Of a DNA stretch of 64,000 nucleotides, positions 28,249 to 41,910 are shown piece after piece. Source of the DNA: Phycisphaeraceae bacterium (GTDB lineage Bacteria; Planctomycetota; Phycisphaerae; Phycisphaerales; Phycisphaeraceae); contig OY771506.1 in the NCBI GenBank assembly GCA_963674705.1, forward strand, positions 5,152,001-5,216,000, written 5' to 3'. Numbering within the stretch: position 1 is the stretch's first letter; each line of letters opens with the position of its first letter. The translations under genes and the position numbers were made by a program. The notes under the pieces were generated by a model, which did no database searches, was not told where the DNA came from, and saw only the letters and a list, made by a program, of their open reading frames with translations.

Positions 28249-29976
28249 ATGAAGAAGTACTCCCTCCGCGAGAGTTTTTGCGTGGTATTGGTGATGGCTC
28301 TGCTCTGCTGCGCCGCCGGTGCCGCCAAAGCACAAACCATCCAGGGCGATCTCGACGGCGACGGCTTCGTCGGCGCGCTCGATATCCAGATCATCCTAAA
28401 CAACTGGAACCAACTGGTCCCCGTCGGCGACCTGTCTCACGGCGATCTACTCCCCGACGGCTACGTCGACCTCAGCGACCTCACCTTCCTGCTGCTGAAC
28501 TGGGGCCAAGGCACCATCCCAACACCCGGCGGCGACGCCTCGCTCGGTATCAACCTTAACGAACTCACCTACTACACACGCGAACTCGCCTTCGTCGACG
28601 CGGTCAAAAGCGCCAGGCCATGGGTCTCAACCAATCCCAGCGGCCAACCCTTTGATACCGGCCAAACCGTCAACACCGACGCCAACGGCTGGCCCATCCT
28701 CCAATCCGGCCAGGCCGCGCAAACCCTGATGCTCGTCGATAAGCCCGGCGCTTACCCCACCGGCACCTACACCGTCACTTTCGACGGCGACGGCGAACTC
28801 GACTTCGAGTTCGACGCCTCCAACGTACAACTCGTCAGCACGGGAAGGATGACCTTCCAGGTCAATAGCGCCTCCTCCAGCGGGATCCTCATGCGGATCA
28901 GTCGCTCCAATCCCAGTGATCACGTCCGCAACATCAAGGTCTGGATGCCCGGCTACGAGGGCGCGACTTCATCCTTCCACGACCTGTTCATCCAACGCCT
29001 TCAGCCCTTCGGTGTTATCCGCTTCATGGACTGGCAGCACACCAACGGCTCGAAGCTCGTTAGCTGGTCCGACCGCACCGAGCCCGATGACTTCAGCATG
29101 GATACAACCAACGGCGTCGCGCTCGAATACATGATCGAACTCTGCAACGAACTGGGCGCTGATGCCTGGTTCTGCATGCCCCACCAGGCCGACGACAACT
29201 TCGTCACCCAGTTCGCCACCATGGTCCGGGACAACCTCGATCCGGAGTTGAAGGTCTACATCGAATGGTCCAACGAAGTCTGGAACTCGCAGTTCTCCCA
29301 GAGCAAGTGGGTCAACCAGCAATCCGGCTCCAACATCTTCTCCGACGCCTGGTTCCAGACCATGGCCGGGCATGTAGCAAACGACTTCGGGATCTGGCAG
29401 AACGTCTTCGCCGGGCAAACGGACCGCCTTTTCCGTGTCGCCGCAGGCCAGCAGGCCAACGTCTGGGTCACGCGACGGCTTACACAGGAACTGGATAACC
29501 TCGGCAGCCCGTATGACGCGATCTCCTGTGCCGCCTACTTCGACCACTGGAACGCTAAATTCGACGCCAGCACCACTGTTCAGGACATCCTCGACAACGC
29601 CATCAACCACACCATCCCCGACATCTACACCGGCTTCTACCAGGACCACGGCGACCTCTCGCAGGAACTGACCAACCGCCTGGGGCGTAATATCCCGCTG
29701 CTGGCTTACGAAGGCGGGCAGCACTACACCGTCCACGGCAACTCGGCCGCGCCGTACTACCAGGCGTTCAAGGATGTGCAGGAAGCCGACGGGATGTACG
29801 ACGCCTACACGGCGAACATGGAGGCCTTCGACCAAGCCGGCGGGTCTCTTTTCATGGCCTATAACTACATCCGCAAGCAGGATCAGTACGGCTCGTGGGG
29901 CCACCTTCAGTACCAGAACCAGGACCCCAACACGTCGCCCAAATACCGGGCATTACTGGACTTCAATAGCGAATAA
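28249..29976 (+). CDS. Secreted protein with N-terminal dockerin-like module and putative clan GH-A-like glycoside hydrolase domain
   Basis: Signal peptide, GDLDGDGFVG repeats, RFMDW, WFCMPH, EWSNEVWN, YEGGQH. Confidence 0.75.
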   Translation: MKKYSLRESFCVVLVMALLCCAAGAAKAQTIQGDLDGDGFVGALDIQIILNNWNQLVPVGDLSHGDLLPDGYVDLSDLTFLLLNWGQGTIPTPGGDASLGINLNELTYYTRELAFVDAVKSARPWVSTNPSGQPFDTGQTVNTDANGWPILQSGQAAQTLMLVDKPGAYPTGTYTVTFDGDGELDFEFDASNVQLVSTGRMTFQVNSASSSGILMRISRSNPSDHVRNIKVWMPGYEGATSSFHDLFIQRLQPFGVIRFMDWQHTNGSKLVSWSDRTEPDDFSMDTTNGVALEYMIELCNELGADAWFCMPHQADDNFVTQFATMVRDNLDPELKVYIEWSNEVWNSQFSQSKWVNQQSGSNIFSDAWFQTMAGHVANDFGIWQNVFAGQTDRLFRVAAGQQANVWVTRRLTQELDNLGSPYDAISCAAYFDHWNAKFDASTTVQDILDNAINHTIPDIYTGFYQDHGDLSQELTNRLGRNIPLLAYEGGQHYTVHGNSAAPYYQAFKDVQEADGMYDAYTANMEAFDQAGGSLFMAYNYIRKQDQYGSWGHLQYQNQDPNTSPKYRALLDFNSE

Positions 29977-30148: not shown

Positions 30149-31870
30149 ATGTTAAAGAATAATCTGATTCTTGCGTTGTGTCTTTTGTCGTGCGTAGCCG
30201 TGATCGGGCCATGCTACGCGCAGGTGAATGACACGGTCGCGCCGATCACCGGCGATCTGGATGGTGACAGCTTCGTCGGACTTAGCGACCTTGGCATCAT
30301 TATCGAGCACTGGAACCAAAAGGTCACGCCCGGCGACCTGCTCTTGGGTGATCCTTCAGGCGATGGCGAGGTCGGCCTCGCTGACATCGACATCCTCGTC
30401 AACAACTGGAACCTCGGCTACCCCATCCCCGCTGAGCGCAACCTCAATCTCGGTATCAACCTCTCACAACTCAACTACTACAGCCGTGAATGGGTCTTCG
30501 TCGACGCCGTCAAGCAAGCCCGGGAATGGGTGATGACCACGCCCACCGGCAACCCGTTCGACACCGGCGAAACCGTCATCACCGATCGCAACGGCTGGCC
30601 GTTATTGCAGGAAGGCCAGGCCGCGCAAACGATCATGTTCAACGGGATGGAAGGCGCTTACCCCGCCGGACAGTACGTCTGCACCTATGAAGGCACGGGC
30701 GAGATCATCCTGACATGGGACGCCGACGTCGCTTCTAAGGAGACCGGCCGCATAGTTGCCAATGTCACGCCCAGCGACAACGGCATCCTCATGCGCATCG
30801 CTTCCTCCGACTCTGCCGATCCCATCCGCAACATCAAGCTATGGATGCCGGGCTTCGAAGATGCGCAGTCTTCCTTCCACCCGCTCTTCCTGCAAAGGCT
30901 CGCCAAGTTCAAAGTCCTGCGCTTTATGGACTGGCAACACACCAACGAAGTCGACGACACCGTGTCATGGTCAAACCGTTCACGGCCCGTCTACTACACG
31001 CAAGGCACGCTCCGCGGCGTCTCGATCGAACAGATGATTGAACTGTGTAACGAACTACATGCCGATCCTTGGTTCTGCATGCCGCACACCGCCAGCGACG
31101 CCTACATCGCCAACTTCTCCGCGCTCGTGCAGGAGCTGCTGGACCCCGATCGCAAGATATATATTGAGTGGTCCAACGAGGTCTGGAACTCTCGCTTTGA
31201 TGTCCACCAGTATGTCAAGACGCAATCGGGTGGATCGAGCTTTTCAGATGAATGGTTCGACTTCTGGGCCGACCGCGTCTCCAACACGTTCACGATCTGG
31301 GAAAACACGTTCTACGGCGAAGAGGACCGGCTCGTGCGCGTCGCCGCAGGCCAGGAAGCAAACGTCTGGGTCACCCAGAACCTTGCCAACCGATTGAACG
31401 GCCAACTCGATGCGATTGCCTGCGCCGCCTACTTCGGCGAAGACGGCGCCGACTTCGACGAAAGCACGACCGCCGAGCAGATCCTGCTCGACGCGATCAA
31501 CCGAGCGATCCCGCAGAAGTCCGCCGTCTTCTACCAGAAGCACGGCGACCTGGCCGGAAAACTCTCCAATGAGTTAGGCCGAACCATCCGCTTCATCGGT
31601 TACGAGGGCGGCCAGCACTACGCCGACGACAACCGACACGTGCCCTACGAGCAGGCGCTGCTGGATATGCAATACCTGCCCAGGATGTTCAGCGCGTATC
31701 TGCAAAACCTCGACGCCTTCGAGCAGGCCGGCGCCGACCTCGTCTGCCCCTTCAACTACGTCGACCGCCCCGGCAACCACGGCGCCTGGGGACACCTCGA
31801 GGTGCAGGACGCCTCACTCGATACCTCCGAAAAGTTCCACGCCTTGATGTACTACATCAAAGATCAGTAA
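30149..31870 (+). CDS. Tandem paralogue of 28249-29976
   Basis: Same architecture and motifs; TTGACA at 30045 upstream. Confidence 0.75.
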   Translation: MLKNNLILALCLLSCVAVIGPCYAQVNDTVAPITGDLDGDSFVGLSDLGIIIEHWNQKVTPGDLLLGDPSGDGEVGLADIDILVNNWNLGYPIPAERNLNLGINLSQLNYYSREWVFVDAVKQAREWVMTTPTGNPFDTGETVITDRNGWPLLQEGQAAQTIMFNGMEGAYPAGQYVCTYEGTGEIILTWDADVASKETGRIVANVTPSDNGILMRIASSDSADPIRNIKLWMPGFEDAQSSFHPLFLQRLAKFKVLRFMDWQHTNEVDDTVSWSNRSRPVYYTQGTLRGVSIEQMIELCNELHADPWFCMPHTASDAYIANFSALVQELLDPDRKIYIEWSNEVWNSRFDVHQYVKTQSGGSSFSDEWFDFWADRVSNTFTIWENTFYGEEDRLVRVAAGQEANVWVTQNLANRLNGQLDAIACAAYFGEDGADFDESTTAEQILLDAINRAIPQKSAVFYQKHGDLAGKLSNELGRTIRFIGYEGGQHYADDNRHVPYEQALLDMQYLPRMFSAYLQNLDAFEQAGADLVCPFNYVDRPGNHGAWGHLEVQDASLDTSEKFHALMYYIKDQ

Positions 31871-33957: not shown

Positions 33958-34335
33958 TTAATCATGGTCGGATAGTTGAATATCACTGCCCACACGCTGC
34001 GACACCTCATCGAACTTCGCACGCACCGCATCCGAAAGATCGATCCCCAATCGATGCGACAAGAGGTCGGCATAGATCACCACGTCCGCGATCTCCTTGC
34101 CGATCTCTTCAAGGTCAATCTCATCGGTCCCTCGCTGAAGCTTCTTGGTCAGGTTGCACACCCCGCCTGTCTTCGCGATTAAAGGCAAGAGCACCTCAAC
34201 CAACTCCCCCGCCTCCCCCGCCATCGCATTCGACCAGTCCGCCGGCGACCAGTTACGACAACTGCCAAACGACTGCTCGCACCGCTTCACATTCGCTTCA
34301 CGCAACGTTCTCAGGTTCAAACCATTATCTTTCAT
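33958..34335 (-). CDS. MazG-like nucleotide pyrophosphohydrolase (single domain)
   Basis: GEAGE...KEIADVVIYADLL, DAVRAKF. Confidence 0.8.
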   Translation of the reverse strand: MKDNGLNLRTLREANVKRCEQSFGSCRNWSPADWSNAMAGEAGELVEVLLPLIAKTGGVCNLTKKLQRGTDEIDLEEIGKEIADVVIYADLLSHRLGIDLSDAVRAKFDEVSQRVGSDIQLSDHD

Positions 34336-34384: not shown

Positions 34385-34424
34385 GCGCAAAAAAGAAGCC
34401 CACGTTGTATCAACGTGGGCTCCG
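34385..34424 (-). terminator. Terminator of pckG
   Basis: GAGCCCACGTTG/CAACGTGGGCTT stem + T6 on the minus strand. Confidence 0.85.
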
Positions 34425-34450: not shown

Positions 34451-36268
34451 TTACGCCTTGAGACGCGCTTCCAATGCATCCAGCTCATCAGCGAGCGCCT
34501 TGGGCAACTTGCTGCCGAACTTCGCGTAGTGTTCACGCATCGCGGGGATCACGTCGAGCCATTCCTTGTTGTCGACGGCCAGCAACTGCTTGAGGTCTTC
34601 ATCATCGATGTCCAGACCGTCGAGGTCCAGGCTGTCGGGTGTGGGCAGGTTGCCGATCGGTGTTTTGACGACTTCGCCCTTGCCGTCGACGCGGTCGCAG
34701 ACCCACTTGAGGACGCGGCTGTTGTCTCCGAAGCCGGGCCAGAGCCACTTGCCTTCGGGGCTCTTGCGGAACCAGTTCACGTAGAAGACCTTCGGCATCT
34801 TGGCGCCGTCTTTCTTCGCCATGTTCAGCCAGTGCTGCCAGTAGTCGCCCATGTTGTAGCCACAGAACGGCAGCATCGCCATCGGGTCGAAACGCAGTTG
34901 GCCTAATCCACCGGCGGCGGCGGCGGTCTTCTCACTGGCCATCACCGAGCCGAGGAACGTGCCGTGCGTCCAACTGAACGCTTCCATCGCCAGCGGCTGC
35001 GTGCTCGCACGTCGGCCGCCGAACAGGATCGCGTCGATCGGCACGCCGGCCGGGTCTTCCCAGTTCGGCGCGATGACCGGGCACTGATCCGCACGCGCTG
35101 TAAAGCGGGCGTTGGGGTGCGCGGCCTTGACATCCGTGCCGGGCTTCCAGTCGTTGCCGTGCCAGTCAACAAGATGATCGGGCGTCGGGCCGTCGATCTC
35201 TTCCCACCAGACATCGCCGTCGTCGGTCTTGGCGACGTTGGTGAAGATGGCGTTTTCCTTCAGCGATTCCATCGCGTTGGGGTTCGAGGCGTAGTTGGTG
35301 CCCGGCGCGACGCCGAAGAAACCGGCTTCGGGGTTGATCGCGTAGAGCTTGCCGTCCTTGCCGAACTTCATCCAGGCGATGTCGTCGCCGACGGTCTCGA
35401 CCTTCCAGCCGTCCAGCGTCGGGTTCATCATGGCCAGGTTCGTCTTGCCGCAGGCACTCGGGAACGCGGCGGCGATGTACTTGACCTTGCCTTCGGGGCT
35501 CGTGAGTTTGAGAATGAGCATGTGCTCAGCCATCCAGCCCTGCTCCTTGGCCATGATCGAAGCGATACGCAGCGCGAAGCACTTCTTGCCGAGCAGCGCG
35601 TTGCCGCCGTAGCCCGAGCCGAAGCTCCAGATTTCCTTGGTTTCCGGGAAGTGCGTGATGTACTTGTTGTCCGCGTTGCACGGCCAGGGCACATCCTTCT
35701 GTCCGGGCTCAAGCGGCGAACCGACGGTATGCACGCAAGGCACGAACACGCCGGCATCACCCAACACATCCAGAACACTCTGTCCCACGCGCGTCATGAT
35801 GTGCATGTTCGCGACGACGTACGCGCTATCCGTCAGTTCCACACCGATGTGAGCGATCGGCGAGCCGACCGGGCCCATCGAGTAAGGGATGACATACATC
35901 GTCCGGCCCTTCATGCAGCCGTCGAACAGCGGCATGAGGATCGACTTCATCTCGTCCGGCGCTTTCCAGTTGTTCGTCGGGCCGGCGTCTTCTTCCTTCT
36001 CGCAGCAGATGAACGTGCGGTCTTCGACGCGCGCCACGTCCGCCGGGTCGGAGCGGATCAATACGCTGTTGGGCTTCTTGTCTTGAGACAGCCATTCAGC
36101 GGTCCCCCCTTCGACCATCAGGTCGAGCATCGCCTGGTATTCTTCCGTCGAGCCGTCGCACCAATACACCTTATCCGGCTTGGTAAGCTGGGCGATCTGG
36201 TCGACCCAGTCAATGAGTTTCTTATGGCTTGTGTTCACCACGCCCGCAGCCTGATTGGCCTGTGTCAC
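34451..36268 (-). CDS. pckG: Phosphoenolpyruvate carboxykinase (GTP)
   Basis: [42 protein letters not shown]. Confidence 0.97.
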
Positions 36269-36469
36269 GGTAGTCTCCTAATCATCAGGGGGTTACGCTT
36301 TCCAACCCGTGCCCGCAACAACCACGCGAGGCACGCGTACAGCAAGGTCGGCGGTAGTATAGCGAATAACCGCTCAGCGTTCCGACAATACTATCTTATT
36401 GCCTCAATTCCTTGCACTCTCTTGATCTACGCTAGACTATAAACTTAAACGTTATATCGGTTAGCAAAC

Positions 36470-36811
36470 ATGCCTAATAAACTTTGGAAAATTATAGGGC
36501 CCACTGATCGCTTCGAGCCCGGCTCGCACACATGTCTGACCATTGGATACGAACCGGTCGTCCTGGTCAACAATGACGGCTCCTTTTTCGCCTTCGAAAA
36601 CCGCTGCCCTCACGCCGGCAGGCCCCTCGATCAGGGCGAACGCACCGGCCTGATCCTCACCTGCCCCTTCCACGGCTGGACCTACAACATCAAGACAGGC
36701 AAAAACATAGATGATCCCTATGATGAGCAGACCCTGAAAACCTACCCCGTCCGGATCGAGGACGGACAGGTACAGATCCAGACCAATCAAGACCCCGGAA
36801 ACCCAGAGTAA
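36470..36811 (+). CDS. Rieske 2Fe-2S ferredoxin
   Basis: CPH...CPFHGW. Confidence 0.9.
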   Translation: MPNKLWKIIGPTDRFEPGSHTCLTIGYEPVVLVNNDGSFFAFENRCPHAGRPLDQGERTGLILTCPFHGWTYNIKTGKNIDDPYDEQTLKTYPVRIEDGQVQIQTNQDPGNPE

Positions 36812-36814
36812 CCC

Positions 36815-38194
36815 ATGAGTGACCACCCGATCCTGACCATACTCGAAAACGACCATGACGCCGCCGTCCAGCGGCTTTGCGATCTACTGAAAATCCCCAG
36901 CGTCAGCACCGACCCCGCCTATAAGCAGCACATCGACGCCGCCGCCAACTGGGTCGCCGACCACATCAAACAGTCCGGCCTCGACGCCGAGGTCTGCCAG
37001 ACCGCCGGCCACCCCGTCGTCCTCGCCAAGACCACCGATGACGATGTCGAAAACCCCAATGCCAAACGCATCCTGTTCTACGGCCACTACGATGTACAGC
37101 CCCCGGACCCGCTCGACAAATGGACCACCGGCCCGTTCGAGCCCACTATCCGTGATGGCAAGCTCTACGCCCGCGGTTCCTCGGATGACAAGGGCCAGGT
37201 CGCCTGCTTCCTCGAAGCGCTGCGCGCATACAAAAAAGCCGGTCGCAAACTCCCCTGCCACGTCACCGTCATGATCGAAGGCGAAGAAGAATGCGGCAGC
37301 GTCGGACTGCCCGGCTTCCTCAAGGAATACCACGACCAGCTCAAGGCGGATGTCGTCGTCGTAAGCGACACCACCATGTGGGACCCCGACACACCCGCCA
37401 TCACCTACGCCATGCGCGGCCTGGTCTACTTCGATATCAAACTGTACGGGCCCAACCGAGACCTGCACTCCGGCGTCTATGGCGGAACCCTCGCCAACCC
37501 CGCCACGCTCCTGCCTCGCACACTCGCCAAACTCTTCGGCGACGATAACCGCATCACCATCCCCGGCTTCTACGACGACGTGGCCCCGCTCGATCCGGTC
37601 GAAACCAAACGCTGGGCGGACCTCGGCTTCAAGGATGAGCTGTTCCTCAACCCCATCGGCGCAACGCCCTTCGGCGAAGCGGGTTTCACAACACTCGAAC
37701 GGCGCTGGGCTCGACCGAGTTGCGATGTCAACGGCATCTATGGCGGATACATGGGCGAAGGCGCTAAGACGGTTATCCCAAGTTTCGCTGGTGCTAAAGT
37801 CAGCTTCCGCATCCCCGCGAACATGGATCCGAAGAAGGTCGCCAAGCAGTTTATCGACTGGCTCAAGTCGCAGGACGTCGCCGGCTGCCGATGGAAAATC
37901 GAACAGCACGGCGAAGCCTACCCCGTCGCCGTCTCGATCGATTCACCTTACATCGCCGCAGCAGGCCGCGCGATTGAAAACGCCAAGGGACGACCGCCCG
38001 TTCTCGTCCGCGATGGCGCAACCATCCCCATCATCGCCGAGTTCAAACAACAGCTAGGCCTCGACACCCTGCTCATCGGCTTCGGCCTCAACGACGACAG
38101 CATCCACTCCCCCGACGAATGCTTCGGCTTAGACCGCTTCGCACTGGGCTGCAAAACCCACGCGCTACTCTTAGAAGAAGTCGCAAAGTTGTAG
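36815..38194 (+). CDS. M20 family dipeptidase
   Basis: YGHYDVQP, RGSSDDKGQ, EGEEE, DLHSG, HSPDE. Confidence 0.93.
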   Translation: MSDHPILTILENDHDAAVQRLCDLLKIPSVSTDPAYKQHIDAAANWVADHIKQSGLDAEVCQTAGHPVVLAKTTDDDVENPNAKRILFYGHYDVQPPDPLDKWTTGPFEPTIRDGKLYARGSSDDKGQVACFLEALRAYKKAGRKLPCHVTVMIEGEEECGSVGLPGFLKEYHDQLKADVVVVSDTTMWDPDTPAITYAMRGLVYFDIKLYGPNRDLHSGVYGGTLANPATLLPRTLAKLFGDDNRITIPGFYDDVAPLDPVETKRWADLGFKDELFLNPIGATPFGEAGFTTLERRWARPSCDVNGIYGGYMGEGAKTVIPSFAGAKVSFRIPANMDPKKVAKQFIDWLKSQDVAGCRWKIEQHGEAYPVAVSIDSPYIAAAGRAIENAKGRPPVLVRDGATIPIIAEFKQQLGLDTLLIGFGLNDDSIHSPDECFGLDRFALGCKTHALLLEEVAKL

Positions 38195-38349
38195 CCAACG
38201 CCGGTCCTGAGCAAAGCGAAGGGCCGGGTATCTTCTGAATGATTTGTTGTATAGCCGCGACCATCGGTCGCGCCGCTTTGTCAGCGCTGCTTCAACAGCG
38301 CTGCTTTGCCATTCCCGCTCGTTCAGAGCGCGACCACTGGTCGCGGCTA
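38195..38349. repeat. 36-nt hairpin repeat plus TAGCC REP doublet
   Basis: CCAACGCCGGTCCTGAGCAAAGCGAAGGGCCGGGTA; TAGCCGCGACCATCGGTCGCGC ... GCGCGACCACTGGTCGCGGCTA. Confidence 0.85.
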
Positions 38350-38536
38350 AACATTGAATCTACCCACAAGAAATCCCAAACCGGTATAACAACTCTCTTT
38401 ATCAACAATTAACCATAAGCATAACAACACTTTACCCGCAATACGTGCTACAATAGCCCAAATGGCTTAAACCACTCACCGCGGCCGCTGCTTGTCGGCC
38501 CGGGGCGTAAATCACTACATAAAAAGGTCTTACACC

Positions 38537-40426
38537 ATGGCCGTGATCACGATGCCCAACGTCACACTCTCGCGCTCCGCCGAGAACGTCCTCGCTGAGG
38601 CCAAGTCCGTCACTTTCGTCGGCAGCGTCGAAGAACTCGTCAAACTCGCCGTGCCCGAAGGCCAGACCGATCCGCGCGGCGTCTACACCGTCGGCTACGA
38701 CGTGCCCGGCAAAGGCTTCGTTGAAGAGATGAAAGTCAATCGCGTACGCAACGGCATCTGCGCCAACTACGTCGAAGCCTACATGCGACGGCGCGATCCC
38801 GACTGCATGGTCATCGCTGACGATCGACCGACCGGCAAGGCCAAGTGGGAGAGCCGCTTCCCCGATATGAAGTGGGAAGACGTCCGCCAGCAAACCTTCG
38901 ACTGGCTCAAGACACAGGACCTCGCCTGCTTCTTCTTCAATGTAGGCCTCGAAGGCAAAGGCACCTCCGCCGTCGCTATCTGCCCCGCCAACGCCGCTTC
39001 CTTCGCGCTGGGCCTGGCCATGCTCCAGGGCATCATCCCGCTTGAAGAAGTCGATGAAGACTTCTACCACGAAGCCATCGTCTACGTCGCGCCGCCCTTC
39101 CGTCATTCGCACTTCGGCGGCAAACAGGTCGTCGTGCACAACCGACGCGAACCGCTGCACGAACTGTTCAGCTACAACCTCTACCCCGGTCCGTCCGCCA
39201 AGAAGGGTATGTACGGCGTCCTTCTTACACGCGGCGAACAGGAAGGCTGGATCACCGCACACTGCTCCACCGTCCAGGTCATCACCCCTTACGACAACGT
39301 CTGCACCATCATGCACGAAGGCGCATCCGGCGGCGGCAAGAGCGAAATGCTCGAACAGATGCACCGCGAACCGGACGGCCGACTCCGGCTCGGTACCAAC
39401 ACCGTCAATGGCGACTCGCGCCACCTTACCATCCCGCGCGGCTGCGCTTTGCATCCGGTGACCGATGACATGGCGCTGTGCCATCCCGACTACCAGAAAC
39501 CCGAAGTCGGCAAACTCACGCTCTTTGACGCGGAAAACGCATGGTTCCTGCGCGTCAACCACATCACACGCTACGGCACGGACCCGCACCTCGAAGCGAT
39601 GACCATCTCGCCGCCGGACCCGTTGTTGTTCCTGAACATCGACGCCGCGCCGGACGCCACCGCGCTGATCTGGGACCACATCATGGATGATGAGAAAACC
39701 CCCTGCCCCAACCCGCGCGTCATCGTCCCGCGTAAGGATTATCCCAACATCGTCAGCAAGCCCGTCACCATTGATGTGCGAAGCTTCGGCGTGCGTACGC
39801 CACCATGCACGCGCGAGAAACCAAGCTACGGCATCCTCGGCATGCTCAACATCCTGCCCGCGCCGCTCGCCTGGCTCTGGCGACTCGTCGCGCCGCGCGG
39901 CCACGCCAATCCTTCGATCGTCGACACCGGCGGCATGACCAGTGAAGGCGTCGGCAGCTACTGGCCATTCGCAACAGGACGCGCCGTCGACCAGGCAAAC
40001 CTCCTGCTCGATCAGTTCATGAAGACCGGCGACACCCTCTTCGTCCTGCTGCCCAACCAGCACATCGGCTGCTGGGAAACCAGCTTCGCCCCGCAGTGGA
40101 TCGTCCGCGAATACCTCGCACGACGCGGCTCCGCCGTCTTCCCGCCCGACCGCATCAGCCCCACACGCTGCCCACTGCTCGGTTACGCGCCCAACAGCAT
40201 GCAGGTCGAAGGCAGCGAAATCAGCCAATGGTTCCTGCGTGTCGAAACCCAACCCGAAGTCGGCGAAGACGGCTACGACGCCGGCGCCAAGATCCTACAA
40301 AACTTCTTCACCGAACAACTCACGCCGTTCTTAAACAACCCCGACCTGCACAAGCACGGCAAACAAATCATCCAAGCCTGCCTCGACGGCGCAACCGCCG
40401 AACAATACGAGGCGCTGATTAAGTGA
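38537..40426 (+). CDS. DUF4914 family protein, PEP-carboxykinase-like
   Basis: ~630 aa; YMRRRDPD, YPGPSAKKG, TAHCS, HEGASGGGKSEM, TDDMA, AENAWF, CPNPR, SEGVGSYWPF. Confidence 0.85.
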   Translation: MAVITMPNVTLSRSAENVLAEAKSVTFVGSVEELVKLAVPEGQTDPRGVYTVGYDVPGKGFVEEMKVNRVRNGICANYVEAYMRRRDPDCMVIADDRPTGKAKWESRFPDMKWEDVRQQTFDWLKTQDLACFFFNVGLEGKGTSAVAICPANAASFALGLAMLQGIIPLEEVDEDFYHEAIVYVAPPFRHSHFGGKQVVVHNRREPLHELFSYNLYPGPSAKKGMYGVLLTRGEQEGWITAHCSTVQVITPYDNVCTIMHEGASGGGKSEMLEQMHREPDGRLRLGTNTVNGDSRHLTIPRGCALHPVTDDMALCHPDYQKPEVGKLTLFDAENAWFLRVNHITRYGTDPHLEAMTISPPDPLLFLNIDAAPDATALIWDHIMDDEKTPCPNPRVIVPRKDYPNIVSKPVTIDVRSFGVRTPPCTREKPSYGILGMLNILPAPLAWLWRLVAPRGHANPSIVDTGGMTSEGVGSYWPFATGRAVDQANLLLDQFMKTGDTLFVLLPNQHIGCWETSFAPQWIVREYLARRGSAVFPPDRISPTRCPLLGYAPNSMQVEGSEISQWFLRVETQPEVGEDGYDAGAKILQNFFTEQLTPFLNNPDLHKHGKQIIQACLDGATAEQYEALIK

Positions 40427-40791: not shown

Positions 40792-41910
40792 TCACGCCCC
40801 GAACAGGTTCGCTTGCGAGAACATCCCCTGTTTATCGAAGTATTGCAACGCTTCTTCGGTGCTCTTGAAGACCTGTGTCGCGGTCTCGGTGATGAACGGG
40901 CTGGGTGATCGTTTGGGTTTCCAGACGACGTACACCTCGCGGCCGTGCTCGAAGGCGTGGTGCAGTTCGCGCTCGACGCCGCTGGATAAACCGGGCATCC
41001 CGTCAGGCAGTTCAGGCACGAGCGAAACGATCATGTCGCTTTGGCGCACCATCTTGAAGTCGCGCGAATAGATCTGGCCGTCCACGTCGCCGGCGATATC
41101 CAATACCTGCTTGACCGACACACGGATCTTATCCTTGCCGCCCGAGAACGAACCCGCATCAAGTTCGACGAATTCCTTGCCTTCCTTCGCCGCGGCGATC
41201 GCGGCATCCAGCAGGATCTTCTCATCCACATCCGCCGGGTCGAACGCGATGAAGTGCTTGGCGAGTTCAGCGCGGAACGCATCGATCTCCTTGAGCGTCT
41301 CCGGCAAACCGACCACGTGCGTCATCGGGAACGACGGATACACCGTCTTCATGTCAGGCCGACAGATCAAGCGGTAAGCCGTCTCGTAAGTGTCCTTATG
41401 CCTGCCGCGCGACAGGACATAAAAACGGTTCGGGATCTTCAGCGCCTGAGCCAGCAGCTCCGTCGCCATGATTTCTTCTTCACGCCAGACCATCAGGTCC
41501 TTGAGCGTCGCGTCGGAAACGTGGTCGCGATGCAATCGCTCCGCGACGACCTCAATATTGTCCAGCAGGCAGATCAACACGTCCGGGTTCATCGCTTCGA
41601 TCTGGTCGAAGTCGAACGCACTGAACAGCCCGTGCCGCCAGCGGAACGTCGCGTGGGTGTTGACGATGATGTTTTCCTTGCCCTCCGAATCGCGGATCAC
41701 ATCCTTGAACGCCGCACGACGCAGCGAGTTGAGCCGGCTCAGTTGCAGGTCCAGGATCCGCCCGGCCTTCACGTCCGGGCTCTCGGCGTACATCATGTCG
41801 CCGACGTTATATAGATCGATCCGCTCCCCCTGCTGACCCGCAAAATCGACCACCTTCTGCAGGTATTCCTTCTTGTCCATACCGACCTGCCCGGTCACGA
41901 TCGCTCGCAT
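40792..41910 (-). CDS. Nucleotide-kinase-like P-loop domain fused to nucleoside 2-deoxyribosyltransferase (NDT)-like domain
   Basis: IVTGQVGMDKK, IVNTHATF (archaeal AdkA-like); YPSFPM, RDFKMVRQSD, SSGVERE (NDT-like). Confidence 0.7.
   Translation of the reverse strand: MRAIVTGQVGMDKKEYLQKVVDFAGQQGERIDLYNVGDMMYAESPDVKAGRILDLQLSRLNSLRRAAFKDVIRDSEGKENIIVNTHATFRWRHGLFSAFDFDQIEAMNPDVLICLLDNIEVVAERLHRDHVSDATLKDLMVWREEEIMATELLAQALKIPNRFYVLSRGRHKDTYETAYRLICRPDMKTVYPSFPMTHVVGLPETLKEIDAFRAELAKHFIAFDPADVDEKILLDAAIAAAKEGKEFVELDAGSFSGGKDKIRVSVKQVLDIAGDVDGQIYSRDFKMVRQSDMIVSLVPELPDGMPGLSSGVERELHHAFEHGREVYVVWKPKRSPSPFITETATQVFKSTEEALQYFDKQGMFSQANLFGA

Follow-up and report, generated by a model that had tools for sequence, protein, structure and literature searches.

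A DUF4914 protein encoded near pckG in a Phycisphaeraceae bacterium is a candidate compact pyrophosphate-type PEP carboxykinase

In the 64,000-nucleotide stretch of Phycisphaeraceae DNA analyzed here (the window), a gene for a DUF4914 protein starts 2,269 bp from the start of pckG, which encodes a GTP-dependent PEP carboxykinase (PEPCK; NCBIfam equivalog PRK04210, 990.8 bits against a cut-off of 504; Pfam PEPCK_N and PEPCK_GTP), raising the questions of what the DUF4914 protein does and whether its neighbor matters to it. A preliminary description had placed the two open reading frames about 2.3 kb apart, and their positions were verified (Table 1). The protein matches PF16260 (DUF4914) over its full length (residues 12 to 628, E 7.7e-295, 979 bits against a cut-off of 25.7). 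The family, labelled "unknown function," contains no fewer than 8,000 clusters at the 90% identity level and is apparently a widespread bacterial family without a published study.

Table 1. Features of the DUF4914 locus (positions within the window)
Feature	Position	Strand	Description
Terminator-like hairpin	34395-34423	-	13 pairs and T run; directly downstream of pckG
pckG, canonical GTP-dependent PEP carboxykinase	34451-36268	-	605 aa; separate gene, divergent from DUF4914
Rieske-type ferredoxin	36470-36811	+	113 aa; Pfam Rieske E 1.4e-18; genus-level block member
M20-family dipeptidase	36815-38194	+	459 aa; Pfam M20, NCBIfam PRK08201 above cut-off; same genus-level block
Intergenic region	38195-38536	+	342 bp; A/T-rich patch ahead of DUF4914 start
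DUF4914 protein gene	38537-40426	+	629 aa; PEPCK fold predicted in full; candidate PEP carboxykinase of a compact PPi type
DUF4914 key residues			R86, Y216, K222, K223, H242, P-loop S264-E270, D310/D311, E333/F337/R339, N392/R394, lid N458-F478
Adenylate-kinase-like gene	40792-41910	-	372 aa; adk-like N-terminal domain; convergent; right border of variable slot

The DUF4914 protein gave no match to the GTP-PEPCK models PF00821 and PF17297, to the ATP-PEPCK model PF01293 (at E≤1), or to NCBIfam models. Pairwise BLAST against the neighboring PckG was borderline (E 0.05), so this pair alone is insufficient for homology. At the level of sequence profiles, homology to PEPCKs is demonstrated: all 20 of the 20 PDB matches to the family profile are PEPCKs (best E, 2.9e-8), and hhalign relates DUF4914 to both ATP-PEPCKs (97.4%, E 1.3e-11) and GTP-PEPCKs (91%, E 1.1e-6). 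The motif pairs from which the preliminary description had proposed kinship all occur in both translations in identical order, and those from YGG..KK through HPNARF/CPNPRV are recovered in the hhalign alignment to GTP-PEPCKs; the pair DVARVE/YMRRRD falls outside the local alignments and was anchored by hand on R86=R80. Fold prediction, proposed earlier as a check, agrees, with a two-domain PEPCK fold spanning the whole predicted chain in the model (pLDDT 95.2, pTM 0.93) and only PEPCKs among the Foldseek matches listed. Query-normalized TM scores are 0.72 to 0.73 for PPi-dependent enzymes versus 0.59 to 0.65 for ATP and GTP enzymes. By VIA, 582 of the 629 model residues are aligned to the PPi-PEPCK structures 6k31 and 8e1u at 17 to 18% identity, with 483 to 508 residues aligned to ATP chains and 511 to 528 to GTP chains (14 to 17% identity).

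The PEPCK superfamily is defined by the PCK-specific motif Y.G..KK, the kinase-1a P-loop xK[TS], and the kinase-2 motif xDD (PMC2684135), and all three are present in DUF4914. Among 226 DUF4914 sequences, Y216, G218, K222, K223, K268, D310, and D311 are each invariant, as are R84, N392, R394, and the substrate arginine R86 (its equivalence being hand anchored); position 269 is always S or T, and the metal histidine H242 is found in 225. The most conserved positions of the family are the catalytic residues, and the protein is inferred to be catalytically competent.

To compare phosphoryl-donor signatures, 226 DUF4914, 19 PPi, 35 ATP, and 14 GTP sequences were used, with the ATP and GTP pockets defined according to PMC2684135 and the PPi-class signatures derived within this analysis rather than from a curated definition. 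The P-loop SGxGKSE is found in 222/226 DUF4914 and 19/19 PPi sequences (ATP, 0/35; GTP, 0/14), and the lid [ST]EGx5PF in 220/226 and 19/19 (0/35; 0/14). ExxxFxR (204/226 and 19/19; ATP, 2/35; GTP, 0/14) and NPR (225/226 and 19/19; ATP, 4/35; GTP, 0/14) are distributed similarly. All four signatures are present in the two PPi enzymes with solved structures (6k31 and 8e1u), and SGGGKSE, also named as the PPi-PEPCK P-loop in the preliminary description, is the P-loop of each. The GTP motif [WY]PG[FY] and the GTP-type P-loop [CS]GKT[NS] occur in 0/226 DUF4914 sequences, GK[TS][TS] in 1/226, and the ATP adenine-pocket motif RX5TR, itself present in only 16/35 ATP-family sequences, in 0/226. The phosphate-side motifs of DUF4914 point to the PPi class, and, because a glutamate follows the P-loop KS and the ATP and GTP base-binding motifs are absent, the sequences suggest that no nucleoside is bound. 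A maximum-likelihood tree (140 motif columns, 42 sequences) groups DUF4914 with PPi-PEPCK (SH-aLRT 89.9, UFBoot 97), with alternatives left unrejected by the AU test.

PPi-PEPCK (EC 4.1.1.38; Actinomyces israelii 6k31, Propionibacterium freudenreichii 8e1u) is among the closest known systems, but it is a chain of about 1,130 to 1,200 aa with 170 residues between the P-loop lysine and the Asp pair, whereas DUF4914 has about 630 aa, a spacing of 42, no large insertions, and different surroundings of the N-terminal motifs. A profile search, whose positive control found true members, detected no full-size PPi-PEPCK in this genome; the profile, which does not pick up DUF4914 in genomes, had no match there at E≤0.001. 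Compared with ATP-PEPCK (PckA, EC 4.1.1.49, PF01293; Thermus thermophilus 1j3b/2pc9, Escherichia coli 1aq2, Trypanosoma cruzi 1ii2), DUF4914 has GKSE instead of GKTT in the P-loop, lacks the NTG..RX5TR adenine motif (0/226), and has a different lid and about 100 extra residues. GTP-PEPCK (PckG, EC 4.1.1.32, PF00821/PF17297; rat 3dt2, Mycobacterium tuberculosis 4r43, and the neighboring gene product) is farther from DUF4914 than either of the other classes (block score 22.8, identity 19.6%), and its CGKTN P-loop and WPGF guanine motif are missing from DUF4914. HPr kinase/phosphorylase lacks the N-terminal PEPCK domain and acid-binding site, whereas the match of DUF4914 to PEPCKs covers its entire chain.

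We tentatively read DUF4914 as a compact (630-aa) pyrophosphate-type carboxykinase of the PEPCK superfamily, a reading with slightly less than an even chance of being right. The predicted reaction is PEP + CO2 + Pi <-> oxaloacetate + PPi, probably running in the CO2-fixing direction; carboxylation is the preferred direction of PPi-PEPCK (PMC12547629). Also in favor of this reading, purE, purK, pyruvate-carboxylase-B-like, carbonic anhydrase, or SbtA genes are found within 6 kb of DUF4914 in 12 of the 80 loci surveyed (870 kb in total), with consecutive DUF4914-purE-purK genes in G114, and DUF4914 occurs alongside ATP- or GTP-PEPCK in 27/32 genomes, just as most PPi-PEPCK hosts carry an ATP or GTP enzyme (PMC8100219). 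Going by the residue roles of known PEPCK chemistry, given in part in PMC2684135, K223, H242, and D311 would be ligands of the catalytic Mn2+; R86, Y216, K222, and N392 would form the binding site for PEP or oxaloacetate; K268/S269 of the P-loop, D310, R339, and R394 would hold a second metal and two phosphates; and the lid (458 to 478) would close over the enolate. In this cell, DUF4914 may supply anaplerotic oxaloacetate, with the separately transcribed GTP enzyme serving the gluconeogenic direction.

The closeness of the gene to pckG on the chromosome is probably incidental. The intergenic region ahead of DUF4914, which contains neither a sigma-70 consensus site nor an Rfam match, is likely its own promoter region. 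The two genes are divergent, with two others between them, and pckG is followed by a terminator-like hairpin of its own; only position and strength speak for this hairpin, because the total of such sites in the region (6) equals the shuffle mean (6.8). The pckG-Rieske-M20-...-adk-like block is present in a same-genus genome where an unrelated gene of 736 aa takes the place of DUF4914, and the Rieske gene is retained in G010, a genome without DUF4914. Proximity to pckG is found in 7/8 DUF4914-bearing genomes of the genus but in only 2/13 other genomes with both genes. The partnership with pckG suggested in the preliminary description is therefore the weak part of its interpretation; superfamily membership, the intact catalytic constellation, and the lack of a class assignment stand, and the donor, which it had left open, can be narrowed toward the PPi class.

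A noncatalytic sensor or dedicated partner subunit of the neighboring GTP-PEPCK is very improbable: conservation is highest at the catalytic residues, 11/32 DUF4914 genomes lack pckG, and in 11/13 genomes outside the genus the two genes are distant or on separate contigs, although a degenerate PEPCK fold is known as a structural subunit (8j9h_E2) and G019 and G038 have pckG immediately upstream of DUF4914 in the same orientation, their DUF4914 genes belonging to another clade than the present gene. It is unlikely that DUF4914 is a true PEPCK, of a fourth, nucleotide-dependent class, using ATP, GTP, ITP, or several of these through a new base-binding pocket, since known base-binding motifs are absent in 226/226 sequences and the signatures of the P-loop and lid, together with ExxxFxR and NPR, agree with the PPi class rather than with the nucleotide classes.

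Retained PEPCK chemistry (metal-stabilized enolate and phosphoryl transfer) on another substrate, such as some other 2-oxo acid, or in a PEP/pyruvate phosphotransferase that works without CO2, is likewise rather unlikely. DUF4914 occurs alongside a known PEPCK class in 29/32 genomes, so it need not duplicate the PEPCK reaction. The family-specific invariants R84, R189, and the Y-P-G-P-S-A-K-K spacing ring the acid site, and 11 of the 80 loci surveyed have a conserved downstream partner outside any Pfam family. Against a changed substrate, all mappable PEPCK substrate-contacting positions are retained, and DUF4914 is the sole PEPCK-like gene found in G014, G015, and G097 (95, 88, and 90% complete). 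CO2/bicarbonate genes or other PEP/oxaloacetate-node enzymes also adjoin it in several lineages.

Few areas of metabolism are as well studied as the PEP-pyruvate-oxaloacetate node. Three carboxykinase classes are recognized there (PMC8100219, PMC10441589), and the literature disagrees on how phosphoryl-donor choice evolved in the PEPCK fold (PMC10441589). It is possible, at somewhat less than an even chance, that DUF4914 forms a fourth class of half-size, nucleotide-independent, CO2-fixing enzymes, sister to the giant PPi-PEPCKs and linking them to the ATP class, spread over many phyla, working in some lineages together with bicarbonate transport and carbonic anhydrase, and serving as the sole carboxykinase of some bacteria. 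These possibly include Thermotoga maritima, which among the control genomes has a match to PF16260 and none to PF00821 or PF01293. Were DUF4914 a fourth class, metabolic models of Planctomycetota, Verrucomicrobiota, Thermotoga, and others would change; if it uses PPi, this 630-aa protein would fix CO2 while sparing ATP and would offer a natural test of phosphoryl-donor evolution within the fold.

The DUF4914 protein received no name in the NCBIfam search, and its closest named homologues are of Phycisphaeraceae origin. The PEPCK likeness claimed for this ORF in the preliminary description is real and was read correctly; all of the motif pairs quoted from it and from PckG were found, in the same order. 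Direct pairwise comparison of the two proteins gave a borderline match (E = 0.05), and homology was therefore tested by profiles and a model. Among 226 distinct full-length DUF4914 homologues, a set weighted toward close relatives (divergent members, n = 11), no variation is observed at R84, R86, R189, Y216, G218, K222, K223, S264, G265, K268, E270, D310, D311, E333, N392, R394, G418, F478, P506, G511, and R524, while H242 and R339 are each kept in 225. By the motif definitions of PMC2684135, the conserved positions take in the kinase-1a, kinase-2, and PCK-specific motifs. Because the catalytic residues are kept down to about 26% identity, the alignment argues for an active enzyme, and a noncatalytic role appears very improbable. 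The remaining conserved residues presumably play the roles that we assigned to them after PEPCK structures.

Features in the window and at compared loci (positions are those of the window unless a locus or genome is named)
Feature	Positions	Strand	Remarks
DUF4914 protein	38537-40426	+	629 aa; Pfam DUF4914 along its length, E 7.7e-295
pckG, canonical GTP-PEPCK	34451-36268	-	Pfam and NCBIfam
Protein with adenylate-kinase-like N-terminal domain	40792-41910	-	372 aa; archaeal-type; below NCBIfam cutoff; C-terminal nucleoside-deoxyribosyltransferase-like match faint (E 0.16)
Small MazG-like nucleotide pyrophosphohydrolase	33958-34335	-	Just downstream of putative pckG terminator
Tandem paralogues	28249-29976, 30149-31870		~575 aa; secreted-looking; dockerin-like N-terminal repeats (by eye)
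Divergent PF01293 protein	L108 1360-2937	-	Further loci: L198-L209, L213-L216
Full-size PPi-PEPCK	L146 921-4397		Set L140-L159; no Pfam-A match in library copy searched
Follower of DUF4914	L096 7876-8796		300 aa; no Pfam or NCBIfam family; directly after DUF4914 (11/80 loci)
Homologues of this follower, source genome	G000:C1:478190-478990, 973918-974700		Elsewhere in the genome
Aconitase locus of genome G168 (L240)	G168:C13:20600-27300		

To compare phosphoryl donor classes, 20 PPi-class proteins were gathered by P-loop pattern (19 full length, 1,122 to 1,202 aa), one of which, compared with the PDB, matched 8e1u and 6k31 with an E value of 0; ATP-family (n = 35) and GTP-family (n = 14) sets came from the same phylum. 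DUF4914 shares four signatures with the PPi-PEPCK class, and all four also occur in both solved PPi enzymes (6k31, 8e1u): SGxGKSE (222/226 DUF4914, 19/19 PPi, 0/35 ATP, 0/14 GTP), ExxxFxR (204/226, 19/19, 2/35, 0/14), NPR (225/226, 19/19, 4/35, 0/14), and the lid motif [ST]EGx5PF (220/226, 19/19, 0/35, 0/14). This motif-level link, drawn from sequence comparison, originates in the present analysis. With 11 blocks anchored by hand (140 columns in all), DUF4914 reached a BLOSUM sum of 70.6 against the PPi class, 62.0 against ATP, and 22.8 against GTP; the PPi lead arises from the P-loop onward, whereas the substrate-Arg and KK blocks favor the ATP class and the His and Asp-pair blocks the GTP class. 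DUF4914 groups with the PPi class in the maximum likelihood tree (support 89.9/97), but the AU test retains all three topologies (p = 0.61, 0.42, and 0.42). PPi use is thus no more than the leading reading.

The most likely reading, to which we give somewhat less than an even chance, is that the DUF4914 protein would run PEP + CO2 + Pi <-> OAA + PPi by a PPi-type, two-metal, lid-gated PEPCK mechanism serving oxaloacetate supply. PPi-PEPCK is described as favoring carboxylation and the ATP/GTP enzymes decarboxylation (PMC12547629), and most PPi-PEPCK hosts as also keeping a nucleotide enzyme (PMC8100219). A fourth, nucleotide-dependent PEPCK class is unlikely; none of the 226 DUF4914 proteins has the adenine or guanine pocket motif known from nucleotide-dependent PEPCKs, although even within their own classes just 16/35 (ATP) and 8/14 (GTP) proteins carry these motifs. 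Action on another substrate is doubtful to much the same degree, and, all readings taken together, the protein probably interconverts OAA and PEP.

The family comprises at least 8,000 clusters and is present in 18/41 near relatives, in 17/251 genomes of the phylum, and, among 14 control genomes, in T. maritima. GTP-PEPCK accompanies it in 21 of 32 carriers and ATP-PEPCK in 7 (6 clear, 1 divergent); 27/32 have at least one of the two. Two of the remaining five (G114, G172) have a full-size PPi-PEPCK, and none of the three PEPCK classes was found in the others (G014, G015, and G097; 95, 88, and 90% complete), of which G014 holds two DUF4914 copies of different clades (L003, L019). Of these families, the source genome carries GTP-PEPCK and DUF4914 only. 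The PPi-PEPCK P-loop motif occurs in 15/17 genomes of family f11. One DUF4914 gene lies at the edge of an IMG/VR contig (L101), which may be flanking host DNA. Divergent PF01293 subfamilies of the phylum (E 1e-24 to 1e-84), some 600 to 740 aa long, with altered P-loops (e.g., LSANGKT) and QDD replacing GDD, are possible further uncharacterized PEPCK-like groups. ESM Atlas neighbors of 38537-40423 form clusters of 447 to 586 aa without a Pfam family (score 0.91 versus the DUF4914 protein), two of them auto-named PEPCK-like; other unclassified superfamily branches may thus exist.

Two genes separate pckG from the DUF4914 gene, one for a ferredoxin of the Rieske type and one for a peptidase of the M20 family. 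The partnership of the two suggested in the preliminary description is reduced to a weak tie: pckG lies within about 4 kb in 7/8 carriers of the source genus, but outside that genus the two are adjacent in only 2 of the 13 genomes that have both (G019 and G038, where they form a tandem in the same orientation); in the remaining genomes, whose assemblies are fragmented, they fall on separate contigs. Of the 80 best DUF4914 loci from all genomes, 2 have pckG no farther than 6 kb away, both near-identical to source-genus members. The DUF4914 proteins of G019 and G038 share 62% identity with the window protein and belong to a separate clade; adjacency thus arose or was retained on more than one occasion, which hints mildly at a metabolic kinship. 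In G010 (same genus, 95% complete), pckG-Rieske-M20 and the adk-like gene are kept and a 736-aa PEP-CTERM protein fills the slot. The adk-like protein is 69 to 89% conserved in 5/5 family genomes tested. In G168 an aconitase gene stands between the adk-like gene and pckG, so gene content next to pckG varies. We read the arrangement as a variable slot within a block of greater age rather than as a module of two genes.

The gene-neighborhood survey proposed earlier was run on the 80 best DUF4914 loci. Regulators nearby are PocR-type AraC (14) and NhaR-type LysR (7), and a partner without a Pfam family occurs at 11; this 300-aa follower is seen at several Verrucomicrobiota and Tepidisphaerales loci. 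Also found were purE (8), purK (2), a pyruvate-carboxylase-B-like gene (6, one distant), carbonic anhydrase (3), and SbtA (3); LysR, DUF4914, purE, and purK are consecutive in G114. At least one CO2/bicarbonate gene is present at 12/80 loci (870 kb in total; about six lineages, several loci being close kin), where about 1 is expected by our own estimate if each gene is single-copy in a 4-Mb genome. These neighbors fit a CO2-using enzyme, but they occur at a minority of loci, to which the window locus does not belong.

The literature check likewise proposed found no mention of DUF4914, "DUF 4914," or PF16260 in the papers searched; members may be mentioned by locus tag in supplementary tables or subscription journals, and automatic fold-level InterPro labels may exist. 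One paper on a PEPCK-like protein deals with a heliobacterial gene whose membership in DUF4914 is not established. The DUF4914 protein of the window is a typical member of an uncharacterized family, a variant of the PEPCK kind whose donor is most likely PPi, and the PPi-type reading is cheap to test.
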